In this document: in pieces, positions 3,698 to 64,000 of the stretch
How positions within the stretch are numbered: position 1 is the first letter of the stretch
Layout: every line of letters begins with the position of its first letter
Assembly: GCA_016699385.1 (NCBI GenBank)
Contig: CP064974.1
Location: 3,242 to 67,241, forward strand
Reading direction: 5' to 3'
Length of the DNA: 64,000 bases
Source: Candidatus Moraniibacteriota bacterium
GTDB lineage: Bacteria; Patescibacteriota; Minisyncoccia; Moranbacterales; UBA1568
Translations under genes and position numbers: made by a program
The notes under the pieces: generated by a model
Databases searched by the model: none
The model's input: the letters and a program-made list of their open reading frames with translations, nothing else
What the model was told of the DNA's origin: nothing

Positions 3698-3781
3698 GTG
3701 AGGCAATTTTCTTGTGGCGCGTTCTTTGACAGTGCTTGGCGCTTTGTTATGCTGACCAAAGTGTCAGTTTTTCTTTTCTTT

Positions 3782-11736: not shown

Positions 11737-11773
11737 AAACGAAGATTTTGCGTCCCAATTATCTTTCCAACCT

Positions 11774-36047: not shown

Positions 36048-36176
36048 CATATACGAAAAACAGTGCGAGATGTATGGTTTTTTTGATGCCTTTTCAACTG
36101 ACTCTTAAAAAAGTTTCAAATCTCAAATTTCTGAAATCGTTTTCTCATTTCAGGTCTGGATTTTGAATTTTTTCCT

Positions 36177-37717: not shown

Positions 37718-38031
37718 GAGTCGTTTTTGCCAACGACTCTCACAAAGAAAATGCCCACCATACGCGTGGTTATTTTTTTGTAAAATCATTTTTTCTATCC
37801 CTACACCCCTCCCCCTTGCACCTGCCAGTTGAAACTCGCACACGCCGTATCCCGACACCCGCACTTACACCCGCCACCCTGCACAGAGCCCGTCATCCCC
37901 ACAAGGTAGGCAGGGTCTGTGGCGCTTGCGGTACGAGTATCAATATCTACAGTATACCACTTCTCTCTCATTTTTTTCACCGGTTGTTTTACGAGTCACT
38001 TCTCATATTTTCGTTCAAGAATTCGGGACCA

Positions 38032-38059
38032 TTGGATGCGAATTCGAGCATGGTATAAT
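38032..38059 (+). promoter_or_regulatory. sigma70-type promoter TTGGAT-16-TG-n-TATAAT, giving a leaderless transcript for the 3xLamG gene
   Basis: TTGGAT at 38032..38037 and extended -10 TGGTATAAT at 38051..38059. The ATG at 38066 is only 6 nt downstream of the -10 hexamer. Confidence 0.45.
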
Positions 38060-38065
38060 GCCCTC

Positions 38066-43300: not shown

Positions 43301-44951
43301 CATCACCGTCTCCTGGACCGCCTCGACCGATCCGACAGTCGCAGGACAAACCACGTCAGGTATTTCCAATTACGTCGTCGAACGCTGCCAAGGAACAGGC
43401 TGTTCCACCTTCACCCAAGTCGGCACTCCGACCACCTCTCCCTTCGTCGACTCCGGCCTCACGCCAAACACCTTTTACAACTATCACGTCCGCGCGACCG
43501 ATGCCGCCGGGAATCTCTCCGGCTGGTCCAATGTGGTCGGTGCGACGACCCAAGCTCCTGATACGCAAGCGCCCACAGCTCCGAGCAATCTCCAAACCTC
43601 CGTCGTCTCATCCTCCAGCATCAACCTCGCCTGGACGGCAAGCACAGACAATGTCGCCGTCACCAATTACACCGTCGAACGCTGCTCCGGAACTTCCTGC
43701 ACCACCTTCACCCAAATCGCCACTCCAACGACCAACTCCTACTCCGACGCCGGTCTTACGGGAACGACGACCTACCGCTACCGAGTCCTCGCAACCGATG
43801 CCGCCAACAACACTTCCCCCTACTCGAATATTTCTTCCGCCACGACCCCCGAGACACCTCCCGTCTCCCAGTATCTCCAGGCGGGCTACAACTTTGCCGA
43901 AGGCACCGGCACCACCACCCAAGACATCTCCGGTCACAACCACACCGGTACTCTCTCCAATACCACCTGGTCGACGAGCGGCAAATACGGAAACGCTCTC
44001 GACTTTAACGGAACGAGCAGCTCTGTCGGTATTGGAAACTGGAACATTCCCGGAAGCGCCATCACCCTAAGCGCCTGGGTACGGGCGGACGACTGGAAGA
44101 CGGACGATGTCCGCATCCTCTCCAAAGCAACCGACAGTACCGAACAGGGTCATACCTGGATGCTCTCCGATTCCAATAGTCTCCTCCGCTTCCGCCTCAA
44201 AACCGGTGGCACAACCACAACCCTCGTTGCAACGAGCGGCACTCTCCAAACAAATGTCTGGACTCATGTCGCCGCGGTCTATGACGGAAGCACGATGACA
44301 CTCTACAAAGACGGACTCGAAGTCGGAAGCCAAGCCAAAACCGGCACCATCGATCAAAACACCGCCAACATTTCAATCGGAGCAAATCCCGAAGGCTCCA
44401 ACTCCTTTGACGGTACGATAGACGATGTCCGCATCTACAACAAGGCGCTCACGCAATCAGAAATCCAAACCGATATGAATACGGCGCTTACTTCGGGAGG
44501 AGGCGGTACGGTCGCCTGCAACACCGTGACGACCGCGAACTTCTCCGATGCCGCTTACAACAGTTACGGCGCGCCTTTCGATGCGTTTCAAACGAGTACG
44601 AATCTGATGAATGCACTGTGCACCAGCGCCGACACGCATACCATCACGCTCACGACCGGAGTAACGGGAGACACCGCGAGAATCGTCTACACCAAAGGCT
44701 ACTGGTACGATGCAATAGGAAGCGCCTGGCGACAATACACCGGCACCTGCACGGGAGCGCTCAATGGCGAGTGGTGCCAAGGCTCCGTCTCCGCGACGAT
44801 CACGGATGCCAATGTCTCCACTTCCGGGACGGGCTCACCCACCTACCTGGTCGGGATGACCTGCAGTGTGCAGGGAGGGAGTTGGAAGTGCGGGTGTCGG
44901 GATACGGCGTGTGCGAGTTTCAACTGGCAGGTGCAAGGGGGAGGGATGTAG
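40316..44951 (+). CDS. large secreted surface protein (copy C, long form; one frameshift near 40495): signal peptide, 2 beta-helix domains, 3 FN3 domains, LamG_3 domain, Cys-rich C-terminal domain
   Basis: The ORFs 40316..40594 and 40431..44951 overlap. The N-terminus is identical to the 14055 gene up to a one-base insertion (gagccgatc versus gagcgatc). The likely start is the ATG at 40349. The domain architecture was read from motifs as for copy B, plus a second beta-helix (GGVNYYIRDGGTSSTCTDWTNAC...). Confidence 0.75.
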
Positions 44952-45017
44952 GTGGATGGAGAATGTGGAAATTCAGAAGTGTGATACAATGGGGGCATAT
45001 ATTTTTGTGATGCGTGT

Positions 45018-46175
45018 ATGCCGCAGCCACATGGTCTTGGAAGAGGGTTGTCTTCGTTGATTCCTCAGAACCAGAAAAAGCAAGATGCGACTCCTCCGGA
45101 GAATGCTCAATCTTTTTCATCCTCAGCTTCTACTCAGAAGACGAGTCCTTTTGGCGTGAAAATGGCACCTCTTCAGAAAATGCCCACAGCGCCTCCTGTT
45201 TCCATAAAGAAAGAAGGTGAGTCCGACTCATCCGTTCAATCAAGATCTTCAGATGCGCCTCGTGAACCTCGGGAGATTTCTTCGCCAGTGTTTGATATTC
45301 CCGTGAAGACTATGCAGGAGACAGCGCCACCACTCACGAAAGATTCTGTTGCAGTGACTGCTCCAGCAGTGTCTACAGGGGAAGGTGCGGCGCTTTCGGT
45401 ACCGATAGGGAATGTGGTACCAAATCCGCATCAGCCACGCATCCAATTTAGCGAAGAAAAGCTCATGGAGCTCGCGCAGTCAATCAAGGAGCATGGTATC
45501 CTTCAACCACTCATTGTGACGCGTGTCGGGAGTAATTTTGAGCTTATTGCGGGGGAGCGTCGACTGCAGGCAGCGAAAATCGTCGGACTTACGGAAGTGC
45601 CTGTCATGATACGTGAAGCGGAAGATCAGGAAAAATTCGAGCTTGCTATTATCGAGAATATTCAGCGGCATGATCTCAATCCCATTGAGGAATCTCGCGC
45701 GTATGAACGACTTTCGAAGGAATTTCAGCTCTCTCAGGAAGCGATAGCGAAGAAGATGGGGCGAAGTCGGAGCGCTATAGCCAATACGATGCGACTCTTG
45801 CAATTGCCCATTGATATACAACGTGCGGTTGCCGATGAAACAATTTCCGAAGGACACGCTAAGGCGCTTCTCTCTATCGATAATCCTGAGAAGCAGCGAG
45901 CGCTTTTCGATTTGATTGTCCAACAGGGTCTCACGGTGCGCGAGGCGGAAATGAAGTCGCGAAACGTCTCGACTCGACCGCCAAGAAAATCCGCATCGAA
46001 AGACCCGGAAATCGAAGCTCGCGAGAGTGCTTTGTCAGAAATATTTGGCACAAAAGTGCGTATCGCAAAAACCAATGCCGGAGGCATGATTCGCATCGAT
46101 TATTTTTCCGATGAGGAATTCAGAAATATCTTCTCGAAACTCGCCAGCAAAGGCGAAGAAAATATACAAAGATAA
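45018..46175 (+). CDS. parB: ParB/Spo0J-family partition protein with a roughly 100-aa low-complexity N-terminal insertion
   Basis: The N-terminus has GLGRGLSSLI. The ParB box is GERRLQAAKIVGLTEVPVMIRE and the HTH is LSQEAIAKKMGRSRSAIANTMRLLQLP. An S/P/A-rich segment lies between them. No parA is adjacent. Confidence 0.85.
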   Translation: MPQPHGLGRGLSSLIPQNQKKQDATPPENAQSFSSSASTQKTSPFGVKMAPLQKMPTAPPVSIKKEGESDSSVQSRSSDAPREPREISSPVFDIPVKTMQETAPPLTKDSVAVTAPAVSTGEGAALSVPIGNVVPNPHQPRIQFSEEKLMELAQSIKEHGILQPLIVTRVGSNFELIAGERRLQAAKIVGLTEVPVMIREAEDQEKFELAIIENIQRHDLNPIEESRAYERLSKEFQLSQEAIAKKMGRSRSAIANTMRLLQLPIDIQRAVADETISEGHAKALLSIDNPEKQRALFDLIVQQGLTVREAEMKSRNVSTRPPRKSASKDPEIEARESALSEIFGTKVRIAKTNAGGMIRIDYFSDEEFRNIFSKLASKGEENIQR

Positions 46176-46372
46176 GTGATTCTTTAATTCACCTTGCGAG
46201 AAATGAGGTGTCACTTTCGTCGTGTCCCAAACGAAACAATCCCGCCAAGTCGAGAAGCGAGGTAGATTTTGGTTTATACAGATGTGCAGCGCTTCCGGAA
46301 AGTTGAGATTCTTTGACTCCGCTCGGAATGACATAGATTTTGTCCTGCGCGCAGCAAGTTTCTTAACAAGCG

Positions 46373-47491
46373 CTAGAGATATTCCTCGCCCTTTTCTTGT
46401 TTTATTTTTTCCAAGAGTGCTTTGATATCGGAAACTTTATCCTTGCTTGCAACGAGGATGCAGTCATTGGTTTCGACGACGACGATGTTTTCCAGACCGA
46501 TAGTGGCGATGAGTTTTTTGTCGGAAAGGATGAGGCATTTCTTGCTTCCGACATCGACATGATTGCCGCGCGCGATGATAGAAACCTCGTGTTGTTTCTC
46601 GAGGAGGTCGAATATCGCTGACCAATTGCCAACATCGCTCCACTCGAGTGGCGCGGGGATGACGGCGCGTTCTTCTGGGGGGAGTTTCTCGATAATGGCG
46701 GGTTCTATCGGGTCATTCGGGAGGCTTTCGAAGAGCGCTTGTCGTGCCTTCGGATTTTCTCGTTCTTTTTCCATATGTTCGAGGGTTTCGAACAGTGTGG
46801 GCGTAAGGGATTTCACTCGATTGAGGAGCGTTTGCACAGAAAAGATAAAGTAGCCGGCATTCCAGAGATACTCCCAATTCTTGAGATATTCTTCGGCGGT
46901 TTCTCTATCGGGTTTTTCTTTGAAAGCTTCAATCGAGAAAACACGATGATCTCGAATCGTGCCGAGATCATCACCCATTTTTATATACCCAAAACCGGTG
47001 TCGGGAGTGGTCGGATTAATACCGAGTGTCACTATTTTGTCTGGAAATGTTGACGCTGTTTCGAAGGCAGAAAGGAGTGCCGATGAAAACGCTTCGCTAT
47101 TGGCGATTACGTGGTCGGAAGCAATGGTCGCGAGGATAGCTTCTGGGTCGCGATGGAATATTTCTTGTGCCGCGAGAGCGATGGCGGCGGCAGTGCCGCG
47201 AGGGGCTGGCTCGATGATGAGGTGGTCAGAATCAATATCCGGGAGGAGACTGAGAATTTTATTACGGTAGCGGTCACTTGTTCCCACAAAGATATTCTGC
47301 ACGTTTGGAATGGTGTGGCGCACTCGTTCCCACGTGTCTTCGAGGAGCGTTGATCCGCTTTCGGAAACAAAGTTGTGGAACTGCTTCGGCAGAGACTTCC
47401 TCGAAAGTGGCCAGAGGCGGGTGCCACTTCCGCCAGCCATGATGACGGCGTAGAAATGCTTTGAATTCTTGACAAGATATTCTTCGGACAT
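46373..47491 (-). CDS. mannose-1-phosphate guanylyltransferase (GDP-mannose pyrophosphorylase) family nucleotidyltransferase
   Basis: YAVIMAGGSGTRLWPLSRKSLPKQF at the N-terminus, and 372-aa length. Confidence 0.8.
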   Translation of the reverse strand: MSEEYLVKNSKHFYAVIMAGGSGTRLWPLSRKSLPKQFHNFVSESGSTLLEDTWERVRHTIPNVQNIFVGTSDRYRNKILSLLPDIDSDHLIIEPAPRGTAAAIALAAQEIFHRDPEAILATIASDHVIANSEAFSSALLSAFETASTFPDKIVTLGINPTTPDTGFGYIKMGDDLGTIRDHRVFSIEAFKEKPDRETAEEYLKNWEYLWNAGYFIFSVQTLLNRVKSLTPTLFETLEHMEKERENPKARQALFESLPNDPIEPAIIEKLPPEERAVIPAPLEWSDVGNWSAIFDLLEKQHEVSIIARGNHVDVGSKKCLILSDKKLIATIGLENIVVVETNDCILVASKDKVSDIKALLEKIKQEKGEEYL

Positions 47492-47863
47492 AGGGGTTTA
47501 AAAATTACCAAGTAATGTCGCAATCTGAATGTTAGAAAATAATGACAAACTGGAAGTTTGAGATCCTTACCTTGCGTGGAATGAATTTTTTCTCAGTACA
47601 AGTTAAAACCTCTAACACAGCATATTCGCAAAGATAGGCATTTAGGTTTCATGAGCTTTCAGAGGGTGAACTCGTTCGTAGATGGGCTATCTTTAGCGAA
47701 TGGTACCTGGATTCTTCCTGCTAGATGGATGGGAATGACGGAAAAAATCTTTTCATTTCGTGCAAGGAAGCTAAATTTTCAAAGGATCTTTTAGGTGGGG
47801 AGCCGTTCGAACTTCTTCCAAGTACTCGCACCATAGCGCGTTTTCTGTTTTTTGCAAGGGTTT

Positions 47864-47872
47864 TGCTATAAT
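47864..47872 (+). promoter_or_regulatory. extended -10 element TGCTATAAT, 6 nt upstream of the ATG at 47879 (leaderless-type)
   Basis: tgc-tataat at 47864..47872. The ATG at 47879 begins MIEKLKAPW. Confidence 0.35.
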
Positions 47873-47878
47873 GCAAAC

Positions 47879-48640
47879 ATGATTGAGAAGTTGAAGGCGC
47901 CGTGGCGCCGGAAAGACGAGCGGTGGAATGATAATCGGGATATTCCCTCGAAATCAAAGGGAATATTTCATCGTGTCGCAATCGGCATGGCAAAGCTTTT
48001 CGCTGTTGCGGTGCTCGTGGGTTCTGTGGGCGTCTGGTTAAATGCATGGTTTGTGAATCGGTCGGAAGAGGCAAAGCTCGCGGCACTCGAACGTGAAAAA
48101 GCGCAGGAACAATCGACGAGTGCGGCACAAAGTGCGGAAACGAAATCATCTCCACCAGCCGAAGTGCTTGGTGAGAATGATTTGGGTGGTGTCGGCGTTC
48201 TCTCAAGTGAAAACTATCGCGTCGGGCAAATCGTCTTGGGCGGCGATGTCGGACTGCTCTCGCAGGGTGATGAGTTGACCGAGCTTGCTGTCGATGATAT
48301 TCGAGGTGAGACACTGGGGAGTAAGAATCAAAACGAGGGGCGAGCGCTCATTACGTGGAGAACGAGCAAAGCGGCAAAATCGACACTGAAATATAGCAAA
48401 ACTGCAGGAGGGAGCGAAAAGTCTCTTGACGAAGATGGATTTGGAATGTCACATAGTGCCGTTCTTTCGAATCTCGATCTTTCCTCGACGTATCTCTACA
48501 CCGTGACGGTTCGTGATCGTTATGGCAACGAAATTACGAGTGATCCGCATGCGGTGTATACAGGGACGCGAGTGGTGTCACTCTTTGAGCTTATCACCAA
48601 TGCTTTGCAAGAGGTCTTCGGTTGGGCAGTGAAGAAATAA
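47879..48640 (+). CDS. membrane-anchored hypothetical protein with a C-terminal beta-sandwich (FN3-like) domain
   Basis: The ORF track starts at 47852. After Met-10 there is a TM helix (GMAKLFAVAVLVGSVGVWL). A C-terminal ...ALITWRTSKAAKSTLKYSKTAGG...YLYTVTVRDRYGNEITSDP region resembles an FN3/PAP-N-type sandwich. Confidence 0.5.
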   Translation: MIEKLKAPWRRKDERWNDNRDIPSKSKGIFHRVAIGMAKLFAVAVLVGSVGVWLNAWFVNRSEEAKLAALEREKAQEQSTSAAQSAETKSSPPAEVLGENDLGGVGVLSSENYRVGQIVLGGDVGLLSQGDELTELAVDDIRGETLGSKNQNEGRALITWRTSKAAKSTLKYSKTAGGSEKSLDEDGFGMSHSAVLSNLDLSSTYLYTVTVRDRYGNEITSDPHAVYTGTRVVSLFELITNALQEVFGWAVKK

Positions 48641-48903
48641 CGGCTTGAACGAAGGGTGGATCTCAAATGAAAAATGACGAATCTTGTGAGAGTGCTTGCA
48701 GGAGAGTGAGTTTCAAATGCCGAGATATTTGAGGATTGAGAAGGTGTCTTGAATTTTTATGTGAAATTTGGAAGTGCAGCTTTGTATTTTGTTGAATAAT
48801 CGGGCATATTGATGTACTTGACAGAGTTCGAAAGAGCTTTGTTTTTTTGTGGATTTTGTAGTACTATTATGACTAGACACATGGGTGTATTTTCTTAATT
48901 TCG

Positions 48904-51900
48904 ATGCTCTCGACTGAAGTGACGAGGAGGATACGCTTTCATCCTCTCGGATTACTTCGATCCCGAATGCATTTCTTCAATCAAAACAAAAAAGTGAGTC
49001 TGCTCACAATGCTTCGCAATGTGATACAGACAGAAAAGCATTTCATCGCACTTCTTTCGGTAGGTATACTGGCAGGGGTTTGTATCTGGGGAGTAGCTTC
49101 TCCGGCTGTTTTTGCGCAGGCGATTCCGGGAACAACGCCAACACTTGGGAATGAAAAGCAAGTGAGTGCTTCGGCAATATTGCTTGACGGCAAAGGGTCG
49201 CCAGTGCCGAATGGCGAATATGAAGTCCGGTTTAGCATTTATCGCGCCGATCGTGCGACGAGCGATCCCTACCCGTCGGACACGGATGCTACGCTTCGCG
49301 TGTGGGAGGAAACACAGCAAGTGACCGTGAAGAACGGCATCATGAATGCCTACCTCGGTGTGACGACGCCATTTCCGGGGACGCTCACCTTTGAGGGTGG
49401 GGAGTATTTCCTCGGGGTCCGCGTTGGGACGGATTCGGAAATGGTGCCACGGAAAAAGTTTGGCACATTTACGAATGCGATTAATTCACAATTTTTGCGA
49501 GGGAAAACGATTGGCACGAATGCCGGTGATATCGTGACCTATGGCACGAGCGGGAAGATAGATATAAAGCAGCTCCCGACTGGGACGAGCGGAAGTAAAT
49601 TACTCCTCGCAAACAACAAAGATTTTACGGGCGTACTAAACGATGTATCCGGGCTTCTTGGGGATGTCTCCGGACTTCTCGGCGATGTCTCAAATCTTCA
49701 GGGTGACAGTCACGCGCAAAACACGGATACCGGTACGGATTCACTCACGTTTAATATTGGGTCTGGAACAGCTGTAGGGTCGAACAATTTCGACCTGACG
49801 GTCTCGAACGCGACCAATGCGCCCACACTTCGCTATAGCGGGTCGGCAGGGGAATGGCAGTTCTCGGATGATGGTACGACCTTTGCATCGCTCGGAGCAG
49901 GATCGGGCAGTGGCATAACCGGAACAGGAACGAATGGCTTTGTTTCCTACTGGACGGGAGCAAGTACGCTTGGGTCGGAAGCATACCTAGCGACATCTCG
50001 TGGTGGGACCGGACTCGACACCTCGAGCTCGACGGGTATTCCGGTGATTGCTTCTGGTACGTGGAGCGTTGCCTCTTCGCTTGGCGTTTCACAGGGAGGT
50101 ACCGGACTCACGTCTACCCCTTTGAATGGACAGCTCCTCATCGGAAATGGAAGTGATTTCTCTTTGGCAACATTGTCCGTTGGGAATGGTCTCTCGGTGA
50201 CGAATGGATCGGGGTCGGTGTCACTTGCGCTCGATGTGACGACGACGGGCACGACATCGACGACACAGTCGAATTCCGGACTCGAGCTCGTTGCATCTGG
50301 ACTCCGGTTGCTTGGTGGTTGTTCGGATGGGGAAATACTCAAGTGGGATAGTGGGAGTTCAGTATGGACATGCTCCAGCGATCTCGGTGCTACAACATCA
50401 ATTATCAACGTGAATGAAGGAGCAACAGCGTATACAGGTATTGATACGCTCACATTTGATGCCAATGACTTCAGTATCACTCAGCTCGGGAGTGAAGCAA
50501 CGGTGGCAATCGATTATGCGAATTCCGGAATCGCTCGCCTTGGTCAGGATGAGACCGTGACCGGCGCCTGGACATTTAGCGGTAACGCAACTTTTGGTAC
50601 GATTGCAGGTGGTGTCTGGAATGGCACCGCGATTGGCGCCACCTATGGCGGTACCGGTATCAATACGAGTGGCTCGACCGGCGTGCCCTATATCACAGGT
50701 GGTACGTGGAGTGTCGATACAACGGCACTGGCGGTCTCGCATGGCGGTACGGGTGCGACGAGTTTGAATAATCTCATCACTCTTGGGACGCATACTACGG
50801 GCAACTACGTCGCTGCCATCACTGCCGGAGATGGTATCTCTGGATCTGCCGGAAGCGAAGGCGCTACTCCAACCCTCTCCGTCAACCTCCTCACCTCTGC
50901 CGATGGCACCGGAAGCACTTCCTCCAACTCCGGCCTCGAATTCCAAGGCACGAGCTCCAATGAACTCTCCCTCATCCAAGGCTGTGCTGACAATGAAGTC
51001 CTCTCTTGGAATGATGGAACGAGTGTCTGGCAGTGCGCCTCTGTCTCTGGTGTTGGCGGCGTGACGGGAAGTGCAACGAGTGGGCAAGTCGCCTATTGGT
51101 CTGGCACCTCTACCATTTCCGGAGAAAACCAACTCGCGGTCTCAAGAGGAGGAACAAATATCGGTTCGTATGCCATTGGTGATATTCTCTACGCAAGCGG
51201 TGCTACCACACTTGCCAAACTTGCTGACATTGCTACGGGAAATGTCCTCCTTTCCGGTGGGGTAGGCGTGGCACCGAGCTGGGGGAAGGTGGCGCTTGGG
51301 ACGCATACCACGGGAAACTATGTCGCCAATGCGAGCACCTCGACACTCACGGGTCTCACGGGCGGATCAGGCGGATCAGCGGGCGCATCACTCTCTCTCG
51401 CACTCGACTATTCTACGGCGCTTGCGGGTGACCCGGCGCTTTCGGCGAACAATGCTATTTTCGGAACAAATGGACTTATCTTCGAAGGAGCGACAGCAGA
51501 TACTTTCGAGACATTCATCACTCTTGCTGATCCAAGTGCTGATCGAACATTTACCTTCCCGGATCTTTCGGGGACGATAGCGACGATCAATGGGGCACAG
51601 ACATTTACCAATGCCATTTGGAATGCGACAGCTATTGGCGCAACTTATGGTGGGACAGGTATCAATACTGCGAGCTCAACAGGCGTACCATATATTTCCT
51701 CCGGCACGTGGAGTGTCGACGCAACTTCGCTTGCGGTGGCACATGGAGGAACGGGTGTTGCAACTTTCGGCGGGACCAACACGCTCCTCTATACAACTTC
51801 TGCCAATACACTCGCGTCTCTGGCAACAGCGAATAGCTCCATACTTGTCACCAATGGTTCGGGTGTCCCTTCACTCGCAACAGATATCCCGACCGCCGTC

Positions 51901-54900
51901 ACTATCGGTGGCGCCTATGTCTATCGAGTGGGCGGGACAGATGTATCACTTGCCGATGGCGGCACCGGCGCCTCTCTCTCTGACCCCAATGCCGACAACA
52001 TCCTCTTCTGGGACGACTCTGCCGGAGCAAGCACTTGGCTCGCCCTCTCCTCCAACCTCTCCATCACTGCCACCACCCTCGACCTCGCCTCCTCCGTCAA
52101 CATCAACACCCTCCAACTCGGCGCAAACGGCACCGACGGTTCTTTCATTCTTTACTCCGAACAGGGCGCGACCGACTACACCACGACTTTCCAGCCCGGC
52201 ACCCAAACACAAAACATCACCTATACACTTCCAAACGATGATGGGACAAGTGGGCAGGTACTTCTCACCGATGGAAGTGGCACACTTTCTTGGTCGAGCG
52301 TCTCCGGTGCTGGCGGAGTGAGTGGAACTGGAACAAGCGGCTACGCAACATATTGGGATAGCACGAACTCTATTGCTGCCGAACAATATCTCTCCCTTAC
52401 CCGAGGAGGCACCGGTACCACACTCTCCAATCCCGGAGCCGATCGCGTTCTCTTCTGGGATAACTCTGGTGGTGCACTGACCTGGCTCGCTCCTTCTTCC
52501 AACCTCTCCATCACTGCCACCACCCTCGACCTCGCCTCCTCCGTCAACATCAACACCCTCCAACTCGGCGCAAACGGTACCGACGGTTCTTTCATTCTTT
52601 ACTCCGAACAGGGCGCGACCGACTACACTACGACTTTCCAGCCCGGCACCCAAACACAAGACATCACCTATACACTTCCGAATGATGATGGGACAAGTGG
52701 GCAGGTACTTCTCACCGATGGAAGTGGCACACTTTCTTGGTCGAGCGTCTCCGGTGCTGGCGGAGTGAGTGGAACTGGAACAAGCGGCTACGCAACATAT
52801 TGGGATAGCACGAACTCTATTGCTGCCGAACAATATCTCTCCCTTACCCGAGGAGGCACCGGTACCACACTCTCCAATCCCGGAGCCGATCGCATTCTCT
52901 TCTGGGATAACTCTGGTGGTGCACTGACCTGGCTCGCTCCTTCTTCCAACCTCTCCATCACTGCCACCACCCTCGACCTCGCCTCCTCCGTCAACATCAA
53001 CACCCTCCAACTCGGCGCAAACGGTACCGACGGCTCTTTCATTCTCTACTCCGAACAGGGCGCGACCGACTACACTACGACTTTCCAGCCCGGCACCCAA
53101 ACACAAGACATCACCTATACACTTCCAAACGATGACGGGACAAGTGGGCAGGTCTTAATTACCGATGGATCAGGAGTACTTTCTTGGACTTCAGCCGGAT
53201 CGGGAGGTATCGGAGATATCACCGCTATCGGAGATGTGACGAGCGGAGATGCTTTCACCTCAAGCGGCATCCAAGGAACCAGCTTGTATTTCTACGATGT
53301 TGATGGGAGGGGTCAACTGACCAGCGCTGATCTTTCCGCTGTTCGCACCTATACCTTGCCAGACGCAACGGGTACTATTATTACAACGGGCAATCTCACT
53401 GGCATCACAGCGACCGGCACTATAGCAAGCGGTACCTGGAACGGCACCGCAATTGGCGCCACCTATGGCGGTACCGGACTCAATACTTCTGCCTCCACTG
53501 GTGTCCCTACTATTAATAGTGGTACTTGGAGTGTGGCGAGTTCGCTTGGAGTGGCGCTTGGAGGGACTGGAACAACGGCACTCGCAAGTGGGGGCATTCT
53601 CTATGGGAATGGCACGAGTGCGATTGGTGTCTTGGGAGTGATGACAAATGGACAATTGCTCATTGGTGATGGCACCGGTGCGCCAACACTTGCGGCGCTT
53701 TCCGAAGGGAACGGTGTCACAGTGACAAACGGCGCCGGATCTATTAGCCTCTCCGTCAACCTCCTCACCTCTGCCGATGGCACCGGAAGCACTTCCTCCA
53801 ACTCCGGCCTCGAATTCCAAGGCACGAGCTCCAATGAACTCTCCCTCATCCAAGGCTGTGCTGACAATGAAGTCCTCTCTTGGAATGATGGAACGAGTGT
53901 CTGGCAGTGCGCCTCTGTCTCTGGTGTTGGCGGCGTGACGGGAAGTGCAACGAGTGGGCAAGTCGCCTATTGGTCTGGCACCTCTACCATTTCCGGAGAA
54001 AACCAACTCGCGGTCTCAAGAGGAGGAACAAATATCGGTTCGTATGCCATTGGTGATATTCTCTACGCAAGCGGTGCTACCACACTTGCCAAACTTGCTG
54101 ACATTGCTACGGGAAATGTCCTCCTTTCCGGTGGGGTAGGCGTGGCACCGAGCTGGGGGAAGGTGGCGCTTGGGACGAGTGTCTCTGGAACGCTGCCGGT
54201 TGCAAATGGAGGAACGGGAGCAACGAGTCTCAATGATCTTATCGCACTTACGACGAACACGACGGGGAATTATGTAGCGAGTATCAGTAATGGAAATGGC
54301 ATTTCTGGAGGGGATGGTGGTGGGGAAGGCTCTTCTCTCACACTCGCGTTGAGCGCGCTTACGGGTGATTGGAATCAGACAGGTGCCTATGACATCGTAC
54401 TCAACAATGCTTCATCGGAACTCAAGATTCTCGAATCAAGTGGCGCGACATTCTTCGGTATATTCGATGTTGGCGACCTGTCAAGTAATGACAAGACCTA
54501 CACTTTTCCAAATGCGACCGGCACAGTAGCGCTTGGTACGGGAGCGGCGAATGCAGTTGCCTATTGGAGTGGAGCAAACACTCTGACATCGGAAGCGCAA
54601 TTGTCCAATACGCGCGGTGGCACGGGGCAAGATAGTTCAGGATGGACTGGTGTGCCGTATGTGACCGCTGGTGCGTGGAATGTTTCGAGTACGCTCTCCC
54701 TGGCACTTGGCGGCACCGGTACCACACTCTCCAATCCCGGAGCCGATCGCGTTCTCTTCTGGGATAACTCTGGTGGTGCACTGACCTGGCTCGCTCCTTC
54801 TTCCAACCTCTCCATCACTGCCACCACCCTCGACCTCGCCTCCTCCGTCAACATCAACACCCTCCAACTCGGCGCAAACGGCACCGACGGTTCTTTCATT

Positions 54901-57900
54901 CTTTACTCCGAACAGGGCGCGACCGACTACACCACGACTTTCCAGCCCGGCACCCAAACACAAAACATCACCTATACACTTCCAAACGATGATGGGACAA
55001 GTGGGCAGGTACTTCTCACCGATGGAAGTGGCACACTTTCTTGGTCGAGCGTCTCCGGTGCTGGCGGAGTGAGTGGAACTGGAACAAGCGGCTACGCAAC
55101 ATATTGGGATAGCACGAACTCTATTGCTGCCGAACAATATCTCTCCCTTACCCGAGGAGGCACCGGTACCACACTCTCCAATCCCGGAGCCGATCGCGTT
55201 CTCTTCTGGGATAACTCTGGTGGTGCACTGACCTGGCTCGCTCCTTCTTCCAACCTCTCCATCACTGCCACCACCCCTCGACCTCGCCTCCTCCGTCAAC
55301 ATCAACACCCTCCAACTCGGCGCAAACGGCACCGACGGTTCTTTCATTCTTTACTCCGAACAGGGCGCGACCGACTACACCACGACTTTCCAGCCCGGCA
55401 CCCAAACACAAGACATCACCTATACACTTCCGAATGATGATGGGACAAGTGGGCAGGTCTTAATTACCGATGGATCAGGAGTACTTTCTTGGACTTCAGC
55501 CGGATCGGGAGGTATCGGAGATATCACCGCTATCGGAGATGTGACGAGCGGAGATGCCTTCACCTCAAGCGGCATCCAAGGAACCAGCTTGTATTTCTAC
55601 GATGTTGATGGGAGGGGTCAACTGACCAGCGCTGATCTTTCCGCTGTCCGCACCTGGACTTTGCCAAATGAAACCGGCACCATCTGTACCACCGGCAGTG
55701 TCTGTTCTGGCTACCAAGCCTCTCTCGGCTACACGGCTGCCAACGCCGCTCTCTCCAACCTCGCCTCCGTCGCCATCAATACGAGCCTCGTCTCCGACAC
55801 CGACAATACCGATGACCTTGGTTCCGCTGCGATTGCTTGGAAGGATGTATATACCCGCACTATCAAATTTGATGGAAGCACTTCTGGTACCATCACCCTC
55901 AATGCAACCGCTATCGCCGGTACCAATACCATTACGCTCCCAGCGAGTACGGGAACCGTCGCCCTCACCAGTGACCTTCATAACGCTGTCACCCTTTCCG
56001 GATCCTATGACTACATCACCCTTTCCGGTCAAGACATTGTTCGCGGACAAGTTGACCTCACAACCGATGTGACGGGGACACTGCCAGTAGGGAATGGAGG
56101 AACGGGCGCGACCACTCTCAACAATCTCATCACCCTCGGGACGCACACCACCGGAAACTACGTCGCCTCCGCAACCGCAAGCGGTGGTCTCGCTCTGACC
56201 GGCACCGAAGGCGGGAGTCTCGGCATTCTCCTCCAACCTTCAACGGATGCGCTTTCAAGTACCACGAGCTCCGGCTCTGGTATGGAACTCCTCGCAACCG
56301 GACTCACCCTCCTTCAAGGATGTACCAGTGGGGAAGTACTTGCTTGGAACGAAGCAACCGATGTCTGGGAATGTGCGAGCGTCAGTGGTATTGGTGGTGC
56401 CAACGCCGCTCTCTCCAACCTCGCCTCCGTCGCCATCAATACGAGCCTCGTCTCCGACACCGACAATACCGATGACCTTGGTTCCGCTGCGATTGCTTGG
56501 AAGGATGTATATACCCGCACTATCAAATTTGATGGAAGCACTTCTGGTACCATCACCCTCAATGCAACCGCTATCGCCGGTACCAATACCATTACGCTCC
56601 CAGCGAGTACGGGAACCGTCGCGCTCACCAGTGACCTTCATAACGCTGTCACCCTTTCCGGATCCTATGACTACATCACCCTTTCCGGTCAAGACATTGT
56701 TCGCGGACAAGTTGACCTCACAACCGATGTGACGGGGACACTGCCAGTAGGGAATGGAGGAACGGGCGCGACCACTCTCAACAATCTCATCACCCTCGGG
56801 ACGCACACCACCGGAAACTACGTCGCCTCCGCAACCGCAAGCGGTGGTCTCGCTCTGACCGGCACCGAAGGCGGGAGTCTCGGCATTCTCCTCCAACCTT
56901 CAACGGATGCGCTTTCAAGTACCACGAGCTCCGGCTCTGGTATGGAACTCCTCGCAACCGGACTCACCCTCCTTCAAGGATGTACCAGTGGGGAAGTACT
57001 TGCTTGGAACGAAGCAACCGATGTCTGGGAATGTGCGAGCGTCAGTGGTATTGGTGGTGCCAACGCCGCTCTCTCCAACCTCGCCTCCGTCGCCATCAAT
57101 ACGAGCCTCGTCTCCGACACCGACAATACCGATGACCTTGGTTCCGCTGCGATTGCTTGGAAGGATGTATATACCCGCACTATCAAATTTGATGGAAGCA
57201 CTTCTGGTACCATCACCCTCAATGCAACCGCTATCGCCGGTACCAATACCATTACGCTCCCAGCGAGTACGGGAACCGTCGCCCTCACCAGTGACCTTCA
57301 TAACGCTGTCACCCTTTCCGGATCCTATGACTACATCACCCTTTCCGGTCAAGACATTGTTCGCGGACAAGTTGACCTCACAACCGATGTGACGGGGACA
57401 CTGCCAGTAGGGAATGGAGGAACGGGCGCGACCACTCTCAACAATCTCATCACCCTCGGGACGCACACCACCGGAAACTACGTCGCCTCCGCAACCGCAA
57501 GCGGTGGTCTCGCTCTGACCGGCACCGAAGGCGGGAGTCTCGGCATTCTTCTCCAGCCTTCAACGGATGCGCTTTCAAGTACCACGAGCTCCGGCTCTGG
57601 TATGGAACTCCTCGCAACCGGACTCACCCTCCTTCAAGGATGTACCAGTGGGGAAGTACTTGCTTGGAACGAAGCAACCGATGTCTGGGAATGTGCGAGC
57701 GTCAGTGGTATTGGTGGTGCCAACGCCGCTCTCTCCAACCTCGCCTCCGTCGCCATCAATACGAGCCTCGTCTCCGACACCGACAATACCGATGACCTCG
57801 GTTCCGCTGCGATTGCTTGGAAGGATGTATATACCCGCACTATCAAATTTGATGGAAGCACTTCTGGTACCATCACCCTCAATGCAACCGCTATCGCCGG

Positions 57901-60900
57901 TACCAATACCATTACGCTCCCAGCGAGTACGGGAACCGTCGCCCTCACCAGTGACCTTCATAACGCTGTCACCCTTTCCGGATCCTATGACTACATCACC
58001 CTTTCCGGTCAAGACATTGTTCGCGGACAAGTTGACCTCACAACCGATGTGACGGGGACACTGCCAGTAGGGAATGGAGGAACGGGCGCGACCACTCTCA
58101 ACAATCTCATCACCCTCGGGACGCACACCACCGGAAACTACGTCGCCTCCGCAACCGCAAGCGGTGGTCTCGCTCTGACCGGCACCGAAGGCGGGAGTCT
58201 CGGCATTCTTCTCCAGCCTTCAACGGATGCGCTTTCAAGTACCACGAGCTCCGGCTCTGGTATGGAACTCCTCGCAACCGGACTCACCCTCCTTCAAGGA
58301 TGTACCAGTGGGGAAGTACTTGCTTGGAACGAAGCAACCGATGTCTGGGAATGTGCGAGCGTCAGTGGTATTGGTGGTGCCAACGCCGCTCTCTCCAACC
58401 TCGCCTCCGTCGCCATCAATACGAGCCTCGTCTCCGACACCGACAATACCGATGACCTCGGTTCCGCTGCGATTGCTTGGAAGGATGTATATACCCGCAC
58501 TATCAAATTTGATGGAAGCACTTCTGGTACCATCACCCTCAATGCAACCGCTATCGCCGGTACCAATACCATTACGCTCCCAGCGAGTACGGGAACCGTC
58601 GCCCTCACCAGTGACCTTCATAACGCTGTCACCCTTTCCGGATCCTATGACTACATCACCCTTTCCGGTCAAGACATTGTTCGCGGACAAGTTGACCTCA
58701 CAACCGATGTGACGGGGACACTGCCAGTAGGGAATGGAGGAACGGGCGCGACCACTCTCAACAATCTCATCACCCTCGGGACGCACACCACCGGAAACTA
58801 CGTCGCCTCCGCAACCGCAAGCGGTGGTCTCGCTCTGACCGGCACCGAAGGCGGGAGTCTCGGCATTCTTCTCCAGCCTTCAACGGATGCGCTTTCAAGT
58901 ACCACGAGCTCCGGCTCTGGTATGGAACTCCTCGCAACCGGACTCACCCTCCTTCAAGGATGTACCAGTGGGGAAGTACTTGCTTGGAACGAAGCAACCG
59001 ATGTCTGGGAATGTGCGAGCGTCAGTGGTATTGGTGGTGCCAACGCCGCTCTCTCCAACCTCGCCTCCGTCGCCATCAATACGAGCCTCGTCTCCGACAC
59101 CGACAATACCGATGACCTCGGTTCCGCTGCGATTGCTTGGAAGGATGTATATACCCGCACTATCAAATTTGATGGAAGCACTTCTGGTACCATCACCCTC
59201 AATGCAACCGCTATCGCCGGTACCAATACCATTACGCTCCCAGCGAGTACGGGAACCGTCGCCCTCACCAGTGACCTTCATAACGCTGTCACCCTTTCCG
59301 GATCCTATGACTACATCACCCTTTCCGGTCAAGACATTGTTCGCGGACAAGTTGACCTCACAACCGATGTGACGGGGACACTGCCAGTAGGGAATGGAGG
59401 AACGGGCGCGACCACTCTCAACAATCTCATCACCCTCGGGACGCACACCACCGGAAACTACGTCGCCTCCGCAACCGCAAGCGGTGGTCTCGCTCTGACC
59501 GGCACCGAAGGCGGGAGTCTCGGCATTCTTCTCCAGCCTTCAACGGATGCGCTTTCAAGTACCACGAGCTCCGGCTCTGGTATGGAACTCCTCGCAACCG
59601 GACTCACCCTCCTTCAAGGATGTACCAGTGGGGAAGTACTTGCTTGGAACGAAGCAACCGATGTCTGGGAATGTGCGAGCGTCAGTGGTATTGGTGGTGC
59701 CAACGCCGCTCTCTCCAACCTCGCCTCCGTCGCCATCAATACGAGCCTCGTCTCCGACACCGACAATACCGATGACCTCGGTTCCGCTGCGATTGCTTGG
59801 AAGGATGTATATACCCGCACTATCAAATTTGATGGAAGCACTTCTGGTACCATCACCCTCAATGCAACCGCTATCGCCGGTACCAATACCATTACGCTCC
59901 CAGCGAGTACGGGAACCGTCGCCCTCACCAGTGACCTTCATAACGCTGTCACCCTTTCCGGATCCTATGACTACATCACCCTTTCCGGTCAAGACATTGT
60001 TCGCGGACAAGTTGACCTCACAACCGATGTGACGGGGACACTGCCAGTAGGGAATGGAGGAACGGGCGCGACCACTCTCAACAATCTCATCACCCTCGGG
60101 ACGCACACCACCGGAAACTACGTCGCCTCCGCAACCGCAAGCGGTGGTCTCGCTCTGACCGGCACCGAAGGCGGGAGTCTCGGCATTCTTCTCCAGCCTT
60201 CAACGGATGCGCTTTCAAGTACCACGAGCTCCGGCTCTGGTATGGAACTCCTCGCAACCGGACTCACCCTCCTTCAAGGATGTACCAGTGGGGAAGTACT
60301 TGCTTGGAACGAAGCAACCGATGTCTGGGAATGTGCGAGCGTCAGTGGTATTGGTGGTGCCAACGCCGCTCTCTCCAACCTCGCCTCCGTCGCCATCAAT
60401 ACGAGCCTCGTCTCCGACACCGACAATACCGATGACCTCGGTTCCGCTGCGATTGCTTGGAAGGATGTATATACCCGCACTATCAAATTTGATGGAAGCA
60501 CTTCTGGTACCATCACCCTCAATGCAACCGCTATCGCCGGTACCAATACCATTACGCTCCCAGCGAGTACGGGAACCGTCGCCCTCACCAGTGACCTTCA
60601 TAACGCTGTCACCCTTTCCGGATCCTATGACTACATCACCCTTTCCGGTCAAGACATTGTTCGCGGACAAGTTGACCTCACAACCGATGTGACGGGGACA
60701 CTGCCAGTAGGGAATGGAGGAACGGGCGCGACCACTCTCAACAATCTCATCACCCTCGGGACGCACACCACCGGAAACTACGTCGCCTCCGCAACCGCAA
60801 GCGGTGGTCTCGCTCTGACCGGCACCGAAGGCGGGAGTCTCGGCATTCTTCTCCAGCCTTCAACGGATGCGCTTTCAAGTACCACGAGCTCCGGCTCTGG

Positions 60901-63900
60901 TATGGAACTCCTCGCAACCGGACTCACCCTCCTTCAAGGATGTACCAGTGGGGAAGTACTTGCTTGGAACGAAGCAACCGATGTCTGGGAATGTGCGAGC
61001 GTCAGTGGTATTGGTGGTGCCAACGCCGCTCTCTCCAACCTCGCCTCCGTCGCCATCAATACGAGCCTCGTCTCCGACACCGACAATACCGATGACCTCG
61101 GTTCCGCTGCGATTGCTTGGAAGGATGTATATACCCGCACTATCAAATTTGATGGAAGCACTTCTGGTACCATCACCCTCAATGCAACCGCTATCGCCGG
61201 TACCAATACCATTACGCTCCCAGCGAGTACGGGAACCGTCGCCCTCACCAGTGACCTTCATAACGCTGTCACCCTTTCCGGATCCTATGACTACATCACC
61301 CTTTCCGGTCAAGACATTGTTCGCGGACAAGTTGACCTCACAACCGATGTGACGGGGACACTGCCAGTAGGGAATGGAGGAACGGGGGTGGCGACTTTCG
61401 GCGGGACCAATACGCTCCTCTATACTACTTCTGCCAATACACTCGCTTCTCTGGCAACGGCGAATAGCTCCATACTTGTCACCAATGGTTCAGGTGTCCC
61501 TTCACTCGCAACAGATATCCCGACCGCCGTCACTATCGGTGGCGCCTATGTCTATCGAGTGGGTGGGACAGATGTATCCGTCGCCGATGGGGGAACAGGT
61601 TTGAGTTCATATACCGCTGGCGACATTCTCTATGCCTCTGGAACAACGACACTTGCGGGACTGAGTGATGTCGCTACTGGAAATGTTCTCCTTTCTGGCG
61701 GGATAGGCTCCTCACCGAGTTGGGGCAAGGTGGCACTTGGGACACATACGACCGGAGACTATATCGCCTCAGCAACCGCGAGTGGCGGACTCGTAATGAC
61801 GGGAACGGCTGGCGGGAGTCTCGGCATTCTTCTCCAGCCTTCAACGGATGCGCTTTCAAGTACCACGAGCTCCGGCTCTGGTATGGAACTCCTCGCAACC
61901 GGACTCACCCTCCTTCAAGGATGTACCAGTGGGGAAGTACTTGCTTGGAACGAAGCAACCGATGTCTGGGAATGTGCGAGCGTCAGTGGTATTGGTGGTG
62001 CCAACGCCGCTCTCTCCAACCTCGCCTCCGTCGCCATCAATACGAGCCTCGTCTCCGACACCGACAATACCGATGACCTCGGTTCCGCTGCGATTGCTTG
62101 GAAGGATGTATATACCCGCACTATCAAATTTGATGGAAGCACTTCTGGTACCATCACCCTCAATGCAACCGCTATCGCCGGTACCAATACCATTACGCTC
62201 CCAGCGAGTACGGGAACCGTTGCCCTTATTGATGGAGGACAGACGTTTACCTCTGCTACTTGGAATGGCACTGCAATTGGCTCCATCTATGGAGGCACTG
62301 GACTCAATACCTCTGCCTCTACTGGTGTTCCTACTATTAGTAGTGGTACCTGGAGTGTGGCGAGTTCGCTTGGAGTGGCACTTGGAGGAACGGGCACGAC
62401 CACTCAATTCACCCAAGGCTCTATCGTTTTTGCCGGTGCAAGCGGTGTGTATACACAAGACAATGCCAATTTCTTCTGGGATAATACGAATAAGAGATTG
62501 GGGATTGGGGACGCTACTCCCGACAGTGCTCTTGATATTTTGGCAGCCGATGCATCAAATACCTATCTCACTATCGGCAACACCAATGCCGGAAGTTACA
62601 ATGCAGGTATTCGCTTTGAGCTCACCGAGAACAGCGCTCTCTATTCTCTCGGTGTTGATGATACGGATTCTGATAAATTCAAAATATATGCTGGTTCAGA
62701 CTTCAGTGGCACAAGTCAATTTTCCATAGATACGACTGGTGTTACCACCATCAGTCAGCTTCAGGTTGGCGCACAGAAATTTGAAACCGATGGCGGAGTG
62801 CTCTCCTGGGTGGATATGGATGTGACGAGTAGCGCGACGGACAACACGGTGGAGAGTTATAGCGCGCAGGTTGATGGGCAGAATCTCCTGACGATCTATG
62901 CCCTCTCTGATGGGGCGGGGAGTATTGACAACAAGAAGGTACAAATTGGTTTGGGAACCGATACGACACTTCCAGTATTGTTTGGTCTTGATGTAAGGAA
63001 CACCACCAGTGATCCGAGCGAAGGCTTCGAAGGCGCCATGTACTACAATACCTTCGACAACAAATTCCGCTGTTACCAAAACACTGGTTGGACTGACTGT
63101 ATTGGTGCAGGCTCTTCCTACACCGCCGGAAACGGTCTCACTCTTTCTTCTACAACATTCAAGCTCGGTGGCACTCTTTCTGAAAACACGACCATTGCTC
63201 AGACGACCTATACTTACAATCAGACATTCACCGGGACGACTACAACCGGTCTCACTTATACCGCCAATTCACTTACTACAGGCACAGCACTCAATGTTTC
63301 TTCTACTTCAACGGTTGGAGATGGCTCCAAGCTCTTGAATCTCAGCCGTTCGGGTGCTAATAGCACGAGTGGCAAAACGAACTATGGACTCTATTCTGCT
63401 ATTACGAATACAGGGACAACATCGACAAATATCGCCGGATATTTCAGTGCAACTGGAGCGACAACAAACTTTGGTTTGCAAGTAGCTGCGCTTACGGGGG
63501 CAACATCGACGGGCGTTGATATTGGCAATCTTTCTGGATCTACGGCGAACAAGGGAATAAATATCGGAACGATTTCTGGTACCGGTACTGGCGCTGGAGT
63601 GACCGTCGGAAATATCTCAAGTACTGGTGCAAATAATTACGGCATTAACCTCGGAACATTGACCGGAGGAACGGCATCAAATTCGCAGATTACCGCTGGT
63701 GTCGTAACGGCAGTAGCGAGCGCAACGAACTATGGCATCAATCTCGGCGGTATAACGGGTACAGCCGCATCCTCTACGAACTACGGTGTATTTGTCGGGA
63801 CGATGAGTGCAACAGGGACAGCGACATACGGCGCAAAGATTACGGGTCCGACCGGAGCGGCGACATCCAATTACGGTGTCAATATAACGGATGTCTCAGG

Positions 63901-64000
63901 AGCGACGCATAATGCCAACTTGGTACTCGGTACCGTCGCGACGACGGCAGGGAGCTGGTCACTGTATTCATCGAGTACGAATCAATCGTATTTTGCGGGC
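48904..64000 (+). CDS. giant secreted repeat protein (over 5000 aa, continues beyond the window) with tail-fibre-like Gly/Thr/Ser-rich repeats; one frameshift at a C-run near 55274
   Basis: A signal peptide follows internal Met (…MLRNVIQTEKHFIALLSVGILAGVCIWGVASPAVFAQA). The ORF is continuous from 48904 to 55437. A one-base difference from the sister repeat (ccacccctcg versus ccaccctcg) changes the frame at about 55274. The shifted frame is then open to position 64000 with no stop. Only out-of-frame P/S-rich ORFs appear in the track for 55.6-62.7 kb. Confidence 0.75.
51960..55602 (+). repeat. 447-bp (149-aa) repeats inside the giant gene: three tandem copies at about 51960..53301 and two more at about 54708..55602
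   Basis: ctccaacctctccatcactgccaccaccctcgacctcgcc recurs at 52052, 52499, 52946, 54800 and 55247. A separate roughly 440-bp block (50860..51300) is repeated at 53740..54180 (offset 2874 bp). Confidence 0.85.
55737..62222 (+). repeat. 660-bp (220-aa) near-perfect tandem repeat array, about 8.5 contiguous copies, plus one further partial copy after a 420-bp divergent spacer
   Basis: The anchor string gccaacgccgctctctccaacctcgcctccgtcgccatc recurs at 55740, 56400, 57060, 57720, 58380, 59040, 59700, 60360, 61020 and 62001. Units differ by only 1-3 SNPs (gaccttgg/gacctcgg, ctcctccaacctt/cttctccagcctt). The encoded unit is ...ANAALSNLASVAINTSLVSDTDNTDDLGSAAIAWKDVYTRTIKFDGSTSGTITLNATAIAGTNTITLPASTGTVALTSDLHNAVTLSGSYDYITLSGQDIVRGQVDLTTDVTGTLPVGNGGTGATTLNNLITLGTHTTGNYVASATASGGLALTGTEGGSLGILLQPSTDALSSTTSSGSGMELLATGLTLLQGCTSGEVLAWNEATDVWECASVSGIGG. 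Confidence 0.9.

Follow-up and report, generated by a model that had tools for sequence, protein, structure and literature searches.

A 660-bp tandem array of 8.56 copies was found in a stretch of 64,000 nt from the genome of a Candidatus Moraniibacteriota bacterium (contig CP064974.1, positions 3,242 to 67,241 of the forward strand; hereafter the window). The array is most likely a translated part of one giant chromosomal gene, which covers at least 5032 codons in the window and continues beyond it. Our analysis favors, with moderate confidence, the interpretation that the array represents a part of the shaft, recently expanded and variable in length, of a giant fibre that is probably trimeric. 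Bacterial surface proteins are already known to contain tandem repeats of high identity, and the array itself is an ordinary feature of this kind; its carrier, an uncharacterised, conserved, tail-fibre-like giant gene from Candidate Phyla Radiation (CPR) bacteria, is less ordinary. The repeat region consists of the following parts:

55738–61386, forward strand: 660-bp tandem array, 8.56 copies, 99.4–100% identity (direct-repeat search, lag self-comparison).
61387–61810, forward strand: interrupting stretch between the array and the last partial copy, which opens with a different module (VATFGGTNTLLYTT...) and closes with the diverged start of the last copy.
61736–62226, forward strand: terminal partial copy of the unit, 95.7% identical overall (sequence alignment to the array).

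The direct-repeat search returned ten in-register members of one repeat family with a start-to-start spacing of 660 bp. With the sequence shifted by 660 bp against itself, identity sets in at 55735–55738, is high throughout, and is perfect until 61386, which amounts to 8.56 copies; the array escaped Tandem Repeats Finder only because this program allows periods of up to 500. Counted in codon phase, the units begin at 55739, and each of them comprises 220 codons. Copies 4–8 are 100% identical to one another; relative to them, copy 1 has 3 deviating sites (99.55% identity), copy 2 has 4 (99.39%), and copy 3 has 1 (99.85%). The ninth copy is identical over its initial 368 nt and stops at 61386. 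The variants form a nested set in which copies 1–3 share T at unit offset 81, copies 1–2 share C492/A498, and copy 2 alone has G225. All eight of the inter-copy nucleotide differences fall on third codon positions and are synonymous, and there are no indels within the 5.6 kb of the array. Given a self-identity above 99.9% over 5.6 kb, a chance origin of the array is not possible. It is coding and under purifying selection in the forward frame, and it was generated recently and has been kept homogeneous.

These results bear out an earlier sequence-only reading of this DNA, which had described a near-perfect 660-bp array of about 8.5 copies at 99.5–100% identity with a gradient of two to three single-nucleotide differences (99.4–100% when the copies are compared), as well as a paired-cysteine peptide in the units; this peptide, QGCTSGEVLAWNEATDVWECAS, is found in each of them. 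The coordinates given there for the array, 55737–62222, hold at the start and fail at the end, where the periodicity stops at 61386 and 62222 marks where the detached final copy runs out. The interrupting module (350–420 bp) is ~93% identical to 51743–51968 and, at the protein level, 91–97% identical to residues 911–1040 of the giant protein; the switch to it, at 61386/61387, occurs right behind a conserved GGTG motif (LPV-NGGTG). In the terminal partial copy, 18 out of 19 changed codons are located within the first 75 bp, and 14 of the 19 changes are synonymous. Over its last 415 bp (61811–62226), it deviates from the array at a single site and has the same alleles as copies 4–9.

The number of 8.5 copies is provisional, and the caution on assembled copy number that was voiced in the sequence-only reading is justified by the short-read contigs of the same or a near-identical strain, all of which stop at the first internal repeat, and by frameshifts inside repeats. 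Taken further, this caution leads to an explanation in which the repeat is real while its copy number and interior identity result from long-read assembly or polishing, the array having been collapsed, inflated, or homogenised; we regard this as unlikely. We take the source contig and CP064989.1, a closed genome that is used below for comparison, to be closed metagenome-assembled genomes (MAGs) from Danish activated sludge, built from nanopore plus Illumina reads. The Danish sludge MAG pipeline polishes a nanopore assembly with Racon, medaka, and Illumina Racon (PMC8012365). Such an artefact would fit the exact identity of copies 4–8, the frameshifts inside repeats in both genomes, the RecQ and several LamG genes of the window that are likewise split, and the break of every short-read contig of the strain at the first repeat; nested, exclusively synonymous variants in copies 1–3, unlike random error or stutter, and the absence of any indel across 5.6 kb argue against it. 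Similar arrays also occur elsewhere, namely 753-bp copies at 97.5–99.4% identity in a HiFi MAG and a 936-bp array of 5.3 copies. Moreover, over 44922–50903 (~6 kb), just upstream of the array, the window is matched at 100% identity by short-read contigs of other runs, which end where the first exact duplicate of the giant gene begins; those from the same strain that end at the first copy of this duplicate are Logan SRR11674038 and ENA ERZ15185891. Such a perfect match followed by a stop indicates that the upstream part of the window is accurate, and that short reads are unable to cross the giant gene.

The giant gene itself is composed as follows:

48904–55437, forward strand: upstream open reading frame (ORF) of the giant gene as assembled, 2177 aa, the last ~55 codons of which are out-of-frame read-through past the frameshift.
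48904–49116, forward strand: N-terminal leader with hydrophobic residues 47–70, ending in AVFA/QA, a likely Sec signal peptide as judged by eye from the translation.
49084–49773, forward strand: conserved, family-defining N-terminal domain, residues 61–290, with a beta-sandwich core (N-termini of relatives, model).
50874–51173, forward strand: first copy of an exact dispersed duplicate, equal to 53748–54047 (repeat search, self-comparison).
51943–53269, forward strand: three tandem copies of a 447-bp (149-aa) repeat, 86–100% identical (repeat searches).
54694–55574, forward strand: two further 447-bp repeat copies, the second of which bears the frameshift (repeat search).
55274–55277, forward strand: CCCC run with a 1-nt insertion that parts the two ORFs; the other four 447-bp copies have CCC.
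55232–64000, forward strand: stop-free open frame, containing the array and still open where the window ends (frame scan).
62432–64000, forward strand: C-terminal, mostly non-repeated region, cut off by the window end.

In the short-read contigs, the gene caller places the start of the giant gene at 48967. The fifth copy of the 447-bp repeat reads CCACCACCCCTCGAC, and the other four read CCACCACCCTCGAC. Deletion of one C at 55274–55277 yields a single stop-free ORF of 5032 codons that is still open at 64000, with ...SITATTLDLASS... as the predicted junction peptide. Because of this, and because orthologous ORFs in short-read MAGs are uninterrupted, the two ORFs are considered to be one gene. 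The extra C is most likely a residual long-read indel in a repeat that short reads could not polish. The sequence-only reading had placed the array in frame inside a giant surface-protein gene. The 220-codon period, the stop-free frame at 55232–64000, and the hydrophobic leader agree with this; as assembled, the ORF of the array differs from that of the gene start and its leader owing to the extra C, and the Sec-like leader is joined to the array only if this C is an error.

Both closed genomes carry a +1 insertion in the last 447-bp repeat copy, within the same eight codons (SSNLSI-x-x-TTLDL). The two insertions differ in base and site, being a C at 55274–55277 in the window and a T near position 17545 of locus L159 in CP064989.1 (about 17540–17550, corresponding to about 751893 in the genome), and the giant gene of CP064989.1 has an additional 1-nt deletion in another repeat. 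In accurate assemblies (short-read MAGs and a HiFi relative), the homologous modules are in frame. Residual long-read indels in repeats are the simplest account of these frameshifts, under which the positional coincidence stays unexplained. A weaker possibility is that the insertions in the shared stretch are genuine and serve, as a conserved switch, to alternate between short and full-length products. For the present, programmed +1 frameshifting was rejected, as neither insertion site has a slippery re-pairing codon and the accurate assemblies are in frame.

If the +1 frameshift were real in a decaying pseudogene, the 2177-aa N-terminal product alone would be made, and the array would be an untranslated remnant. 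This we consider quite improbable. The downstream frame is stop-free for 8.7 kb, the array variants are exclusively synonymous, short-read orthologues are intact over more than 4000 aa, the HiFi relative is in frame at homologous modules, the locus is kept in at least 25 MAGs, and no internal start with a leader is present for a separate downstream product. Decay would be compatible with the extra C at 55274–55277, with the RecQ gene being broken as well, and with the CP064989.1 orthologue, which is split in three ORFs and has its +1 insertion in the same eight-codon stretch of the last 447-bp copy. In exact-protein look-ups, no match was on record for the two giant-gene halves and for ORF 742–1575; for the halves, this fits an annotation as a pseudogene.

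Windowed self-comparison of the rejoined protein revealed a mosaic of 40–80-aa modules reused at 25–100% identity. Its parts include the five 149-aa repeats in two clusters, an exact 160-aa duplicate (residues 641–800 equal residues 1601–1760, about 480 bp at the protein level), and the 220-aa array at residues ~2280–4160, and the sequence is mostly unique from about residue 4520. The last 254 aa within the window align to a part of the homologue P0282 that lies ~180 aa ahead of its Peptidase_S74 domain; no such domain was found in 61388–63997, the gene's own C-terminus being cut off at 64000. No anchor is visible in the giant protein, the C-terminus of which lies outside the window.

The giant gene has a conserved neighbor directly upstream, which was identified by synteny:

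47879–48640, forward strand: conserved 253-aa gene (p253) directly upstream of the giant gene.

Translated searches revealed the gene order ParB–ManC–p253–giant gene (upstream part at 45018–48640 of the window) in at least 25 MAG loci (L010–L043, L159), and the closed 1.09-Mb genome CP064989.1 has the same synteny. The giant gene is thus directly marked, by comparison of gene order and sequence, as a conserved chromosomal gene of the Moraniibacteriota lineage. Some of the syntenic loci come from records entitled "uncultured Bdellovibrionales" or "Gammaproteobacteria". These titles are probably wrong, the Bdellovibrionales ones apparently denoting mislabelled Moraniibacteriota, and a link to Bdellovibrionales drawn from them was rejected, since the loci have Moraniibacteriota synteny. 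The 230 residues after the leader are 40–90% identical to the N-termini of many relatives, and the model of this domain has a beta-sandwich core (pLDDT 70–90) with only generic Ig-like matches in the PDB. Orthologous ORFs in Illumina MAGs are uninterrupted over >4034, >4724, and 4131 aa, and 26 out of 32 orthologous loci reach a contig end inside the giant gene.

The closest full-length comparison is the giant gene of CP064989.1, which belongs to another species. It is 13.7 kb long with ~75% DNA identity, and is called as three ORFs, the last of which contains Peptidase_S74. This gene has two copies only of a segment homologous to the first half of the unit (first ~370 bp), which are 92% identical to each other, lie 1086 bp apart, and are 78–80% identical to the window copies. 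With two diverged copies there and 8.5 copies here, the array expansion is lineage-specific, and the very recent expansion claimed from the sequence alone is upheld by these two copies together with the 99.4–100% identity and the exclusively synonymous differences within the array. The 447-bp repeats are 96–100% identical within the window, 99.3% identical within CP064989.1, and ~77% identical between the two genomes. This combination of high identity within and low identity between genomes is the mark of concerted evolution by ongoing recombination.

The 220-aa unit can be divided into three modules. Module m1 (residues 1–80; NLASVAINTSL-SDTDNTDDLGS---W-D-Y) resembles a tailspike stalk, m2 (residues 80–160; DLTTDVTGTLPV-NGGTG) carries the GGTG motif, and m3 (residues 155–220; QGC-x5-L-W-N-E-x2-D-x-W-x-C) is a Cys-pair hairpin, both cysteines of which are invariant in 28 out of 28 aligned homologues. 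An exhaustive search with the unit yielded 2359 cluster representatives at E ≤ 1e-3, many of which are giants that reach 7185 aa and contain as many as 20 matched stretches. The whole unit did not recur anywhere in the genome, metagenome, and viral collections scanned, and its modules match with at most 80–91% identity over 30–110 residues; since only parts of the unit match elsewhere, it is a lineage-specific composite of three widespread modules. In the homologues, at least four alternative modules follow GGTG (alignment A4). As the same motif marks both the junction at the array end and the module switch in homologues, it suggests a recurrent recombination junction for module shuffling.

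Near-identical internal arrays are a recurrent trait of the giant-protein family. Exact internal repeats are present in 88 of the 115 relatives of at least 600 aa. A HiFi Moraniibacteriota contig contains 753-bp tandem copies (97.5–99.4%) and a 1317-bp duplicate at 99.4%, and in locus L157 (ENA ERZ25039459 contig_141348, the name of which suggests a long-read assembly), positions 9946–14920 hold a 936-bp (312-aa) array of at least 5.3 copies at 99.55%. The L157 unit and the window unit share a ...TGT.A.TSDLHNAVTL... junction motif.

An AlphaFold monomer model of one 220-aa unit was built from a 57-sequence alignment (pLDDT 64.7, pTM 0.34). It leaves ~160 of the 220 residues without regular structure, and the Cys-pair module is the only part with regular beta-hairpins (residues 181–214, pLDDT 73–84). 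Foldseek found no structural match of the model in the PDB, and searches of all parts of the giant protein against Pfam and NCBIfam gave nothing meaningful. The only PDB suggestion by sequence, tailspike 6eu4 on the m1 stalk motif, is weak (E = 0.1). A poor, coil-rich monomer model would be expected for a chain that folds only as a trimer, yet it is not evidence for a trimer. That the unit instead folds alone within a monomeric beads-on-a-string adhesin stalk or multivalent array, in which the Cys-pair would be a lectin-like knob and expansion would add avidity, is very improbable: the sole predicted hairpins at residues 181–214 (pLDDT 73–84), the two invariant cysteines (28/28), and the monomeric domain rods of known Periscope Proteins would suit it, but the ~160 coil residues are typical of intertwined-trimer chains and all recognisable kin belong to trimeric-fibre classes (tail fibre, tailspike stalk, S74, collagen, YadA stalk).

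The tail-fibre-like character of the giant protein, which the sequence-only reading had proposed, is supported indirectly by several lines of homology. Residues 375–460 are matched by the tail fiber phrog_31660 (E = 4e-10), and homologues of the giant protein match several tail-fibre PHROGs. Unit residues 1–72 are 54% identical to residues 149–220 of P0004, which in turn matches PF12219 (End_tail_spike; 31 bits, cut-off 25) at residues 162–190, aligning with unit residues ~14–42; via P0004, m1 can be connected to the stalk motif of endosialidase tailspikes. Modules 1 and 2 are also present in 141 or more IMG/VR viral contigs, with identity of up to 91%. Homologues of the C-terminal region bear Peptidase_S74, a collagen triple helix, or a YadA stalk, and Peptidase_S74 is present in both the homologue P0282 and the CP064989.1 orthologue. 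The Peptidase_S74 intramolecular-chaperone domain is a hallmark of trimeric fibres.

In the mechanism that we propose, the Sec-type leader would be followed by the conserved N-terminal beta-sandwich domain of ~200 aa, probably as the cell-proximal end. The very long shaft would be a mosaic of 40–80-aa modules that are also present in phage tail fibres and tailspikes, and the distal end, by analogy with relatives, would carry the Peptidase_S74 intramolecular chaperone. Within the shaft, the 220-aa three-module composite was amplified very recently to 8.5 tandem copies, likely because identical 660-bp units recombined unequally by homology or slipped during replication, and the same process, along with gene conversion, may keep the copies identical (concerted evolution). 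The array would add ~1900 residues to the shaft; a change in copy number would lengthen or shorten the fibre and shift the reach of its distal binding end from the very small cell, which would tune contact with host or partner cells. We infer surface display, the trimeric state, the length-tuning role, and the exact copy number. A trimeric fibre that is anchored by its N-terminal domain and binds with its distal end would follow from analogy, because S74-type tail fibres, tailspikes, and the mosaic adhesive trimer (MAT) fibres of Bdellovibrio are intertwined trimers, and a change of shaft length by unequal recombination between 660-bp units is suggested by the behavior of Periscope Proteins.

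Several points weigh against a length-variable trimeric fibre. The exact identity of the interior copies could partly be a product of polishing to a consensus with reads that map to more than one place. In the assembly, the array is in a frame that differs from the signal-peptide ORF (48904–55437), and, if the extra C is real, it is not translated as part of a secreted protein. The C-terminus, hence any S74 domain or binding tip, lies beyond the window. The monomer model of the unit is poor, mostly coil, and has no fold match, and at E ≤ 0.01 no PDB chain was matched by sequence when the unit, a double unit, the N-terminal third, the C-terminal region, or any of three module profiles served as the query. 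Finally, variation in copy number between strains was not observed, the sole full-length comparison being a different species. The potential for such variation, as claimed in the sequence-only reading, would follow from the conduct of comparable repeats (PMC8201768) and gains support from the concerted evolution of the 447-bp repeat.

The content of the window is cellular. It includes an ATP synthase operon, ParB, the leucyl-tRNA synthetase (LeuRS), several giant proteins of the Laminin_G_3/fn3 type, and, from the type IV pilus machinery, an ATPase and a platform protein. Exact protein look-ups located ParB, ManC, and the pilus ATPase on the source contig of 1,111,322 bp (proteins QQR77572, QQR77579, and QQR77580). 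A phage or prophage context was not found, the neighbors being ParB, ManC, the ATP synthase operon, LeuRS, and type IV pilus genes, and a prophage origin was ruled out by the conserved housekeeping synteny. No reverse transcriptase or diversity-generating retroelement was present among the window ORFs scanned, and scans of the window for tRNA genes and Rfam families found nothing. The type IV pilus ATPase (T2SSE) and platform protein (T2SSF) genes at 34335–37232 (forward strand) are immediately followed by two large LamG/fn3 surface proteins and, ~12 kb downstream, by the giant fibre gene, and several cell-surface systems cluster there. The LeuRS ORF (27114–30077, forward strand) has a NUDIX-domain match at residues 433–527 (E = 1.4e-8), after the editing domain.

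Two further regions of the window contain interrupted genes. The RecQ-type helicase at 3809–5300 (forward strand) is split over at least three frames (3809–4318, 3829–4755, and 4439–5101), followed by a stop, and for its orthologue in CP064989.1 the gene call is a single gene of at least 614 aa; the split in the window copy reflects either decay to a pseudogene or several indels of the assembly. On the forward strand, four Laminin_G_3 ORF fragments follow one another (10074–11207, 11824–12516, 12703–13236, and 13503–13967) and resemble one or two larger LamG/fn3 genes that frame changes have interrupted. Intact paralogues are found at 14055–17063, 37919–40228, and 40431–44951, and the 3' ends of the LamG regions at 11462–11736, 16794–17052, and 44677–44950 are ~90% identical.

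The source bacterium, which is tiny and probably host-dependent, belongs to the Patescibacteria (CPR), and, to our knowledge, little is understood of how the ultra-small bacteria of the CPR recognise their hosts and attach to them. Work on host attachment in the CPR has so far centred on type IV pili (e.g., PMC12206443). The giant fibre locus, with its shaft expansion of ~1900 residues, is a concrete candidate for a host-contact structure with quickly changeable reach. Since this gene family is systematically broken in short-read MAGs, and since long-read MAGs list it as a pseudogene or in several ORFs, present catalogues largely miss it.

According to the literature, Periscope Proteins (SasG/Aap, Rib, Sgo_0707 SHIRT, and CdrA) form stalks of variable length from high-identity repeats (Whelan et al. 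2021, PMC8201768). The giant gene shares with them long, in-frame, high-identity DNA repeats inside a probable surface protein of the secreted type, and in both cases intragenic recombination would be expected to alter the repeat number and so to set stalk length. It differs in its 220-aa unit, which is made up of three tail-fibre-type modules and not of a single globular Ig-like, G5-E, or Rib domain, in its mostly-coil monomer model and kinship to trimeric fibres, and in its source, an uncultured CPR bacterium. The unit model does not form a rod of globular repeats with termini ~180 degrees apart, which is a weak test, as a trimeric fibre gives the same result.

Phage tail fibres and tailspikes of the endosialidase K1F type (End_tail_spike, Peptidase_S74) resemble the giant protein in the stalk motif N-x-SL-x-DN-x-x-LGS-x-x-x-W-x-x-x-Y, the LP-x-x-GGTG motif with its ...AAGAR-x-x-LG variants, the PHROG matches, and the S74 domain of relatives. 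Unlike them, the giant gene is not a phage gene and stands between housekeeping genes in conserved order, and its product has a likely Sec-type leader and is 5–10 times as long as a typical tail fibre.

The MAT proteins of Bdellovibrio, with S74 and non-S74 subfamilies, are phage-like trimeric surface fibres (Caulton et al. 2024, PMC10769870). Like the giant protein, they are chromosomally encoded, resemble phage tail fibres, and have a long mosaic shaft, and they are displayed by a bacterium that lives on other bacteria, as the source bacterium probably does. Their invariant N-terminal domain, and their variable C-terminal end with or without Peptidase_S74, may have counterparts in the conserved N-terminal domain of the giant protein and in the S74-bearing orthologue of CP064989.1. 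In contrast, MAT proteins have ~1000 aa and the giant protein more than 5000 aa, and PDB sequence searches (E ≤ 0.01) gave no match to any solved MAT structure, deposited fragments included. A bolder and distinctly tentative proposal is that Moraniibacteriota, and probably many other Patescibacteria, keep a core locus encoding a tail-fibre-derived, S74-matured trimeric fibre of 4500–5500 or more residues, which would be their main device for finding and holding hosts and would have its length and module order reshuffled again and again as near-identical arrays evolve in concert; it would be a giant cellular counterpart of MAT proteins and a periscope of variable length on a trimeric instead of a monomeric scaffold.

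The giant genes of Omnitrophota (bioRxiv 10.1101/2023.11.21.568195) and Giant1–5 of Apilactobacillus (PMC12863079) have HEAT/TPR/dockerin or Ig-like domains, in contrast to the giant protein described here, which has no Pfam match. They share with it a very large extracellular product in a small genome, repeats that break short-read assemblies, and a proposed role in cell–cell contact.

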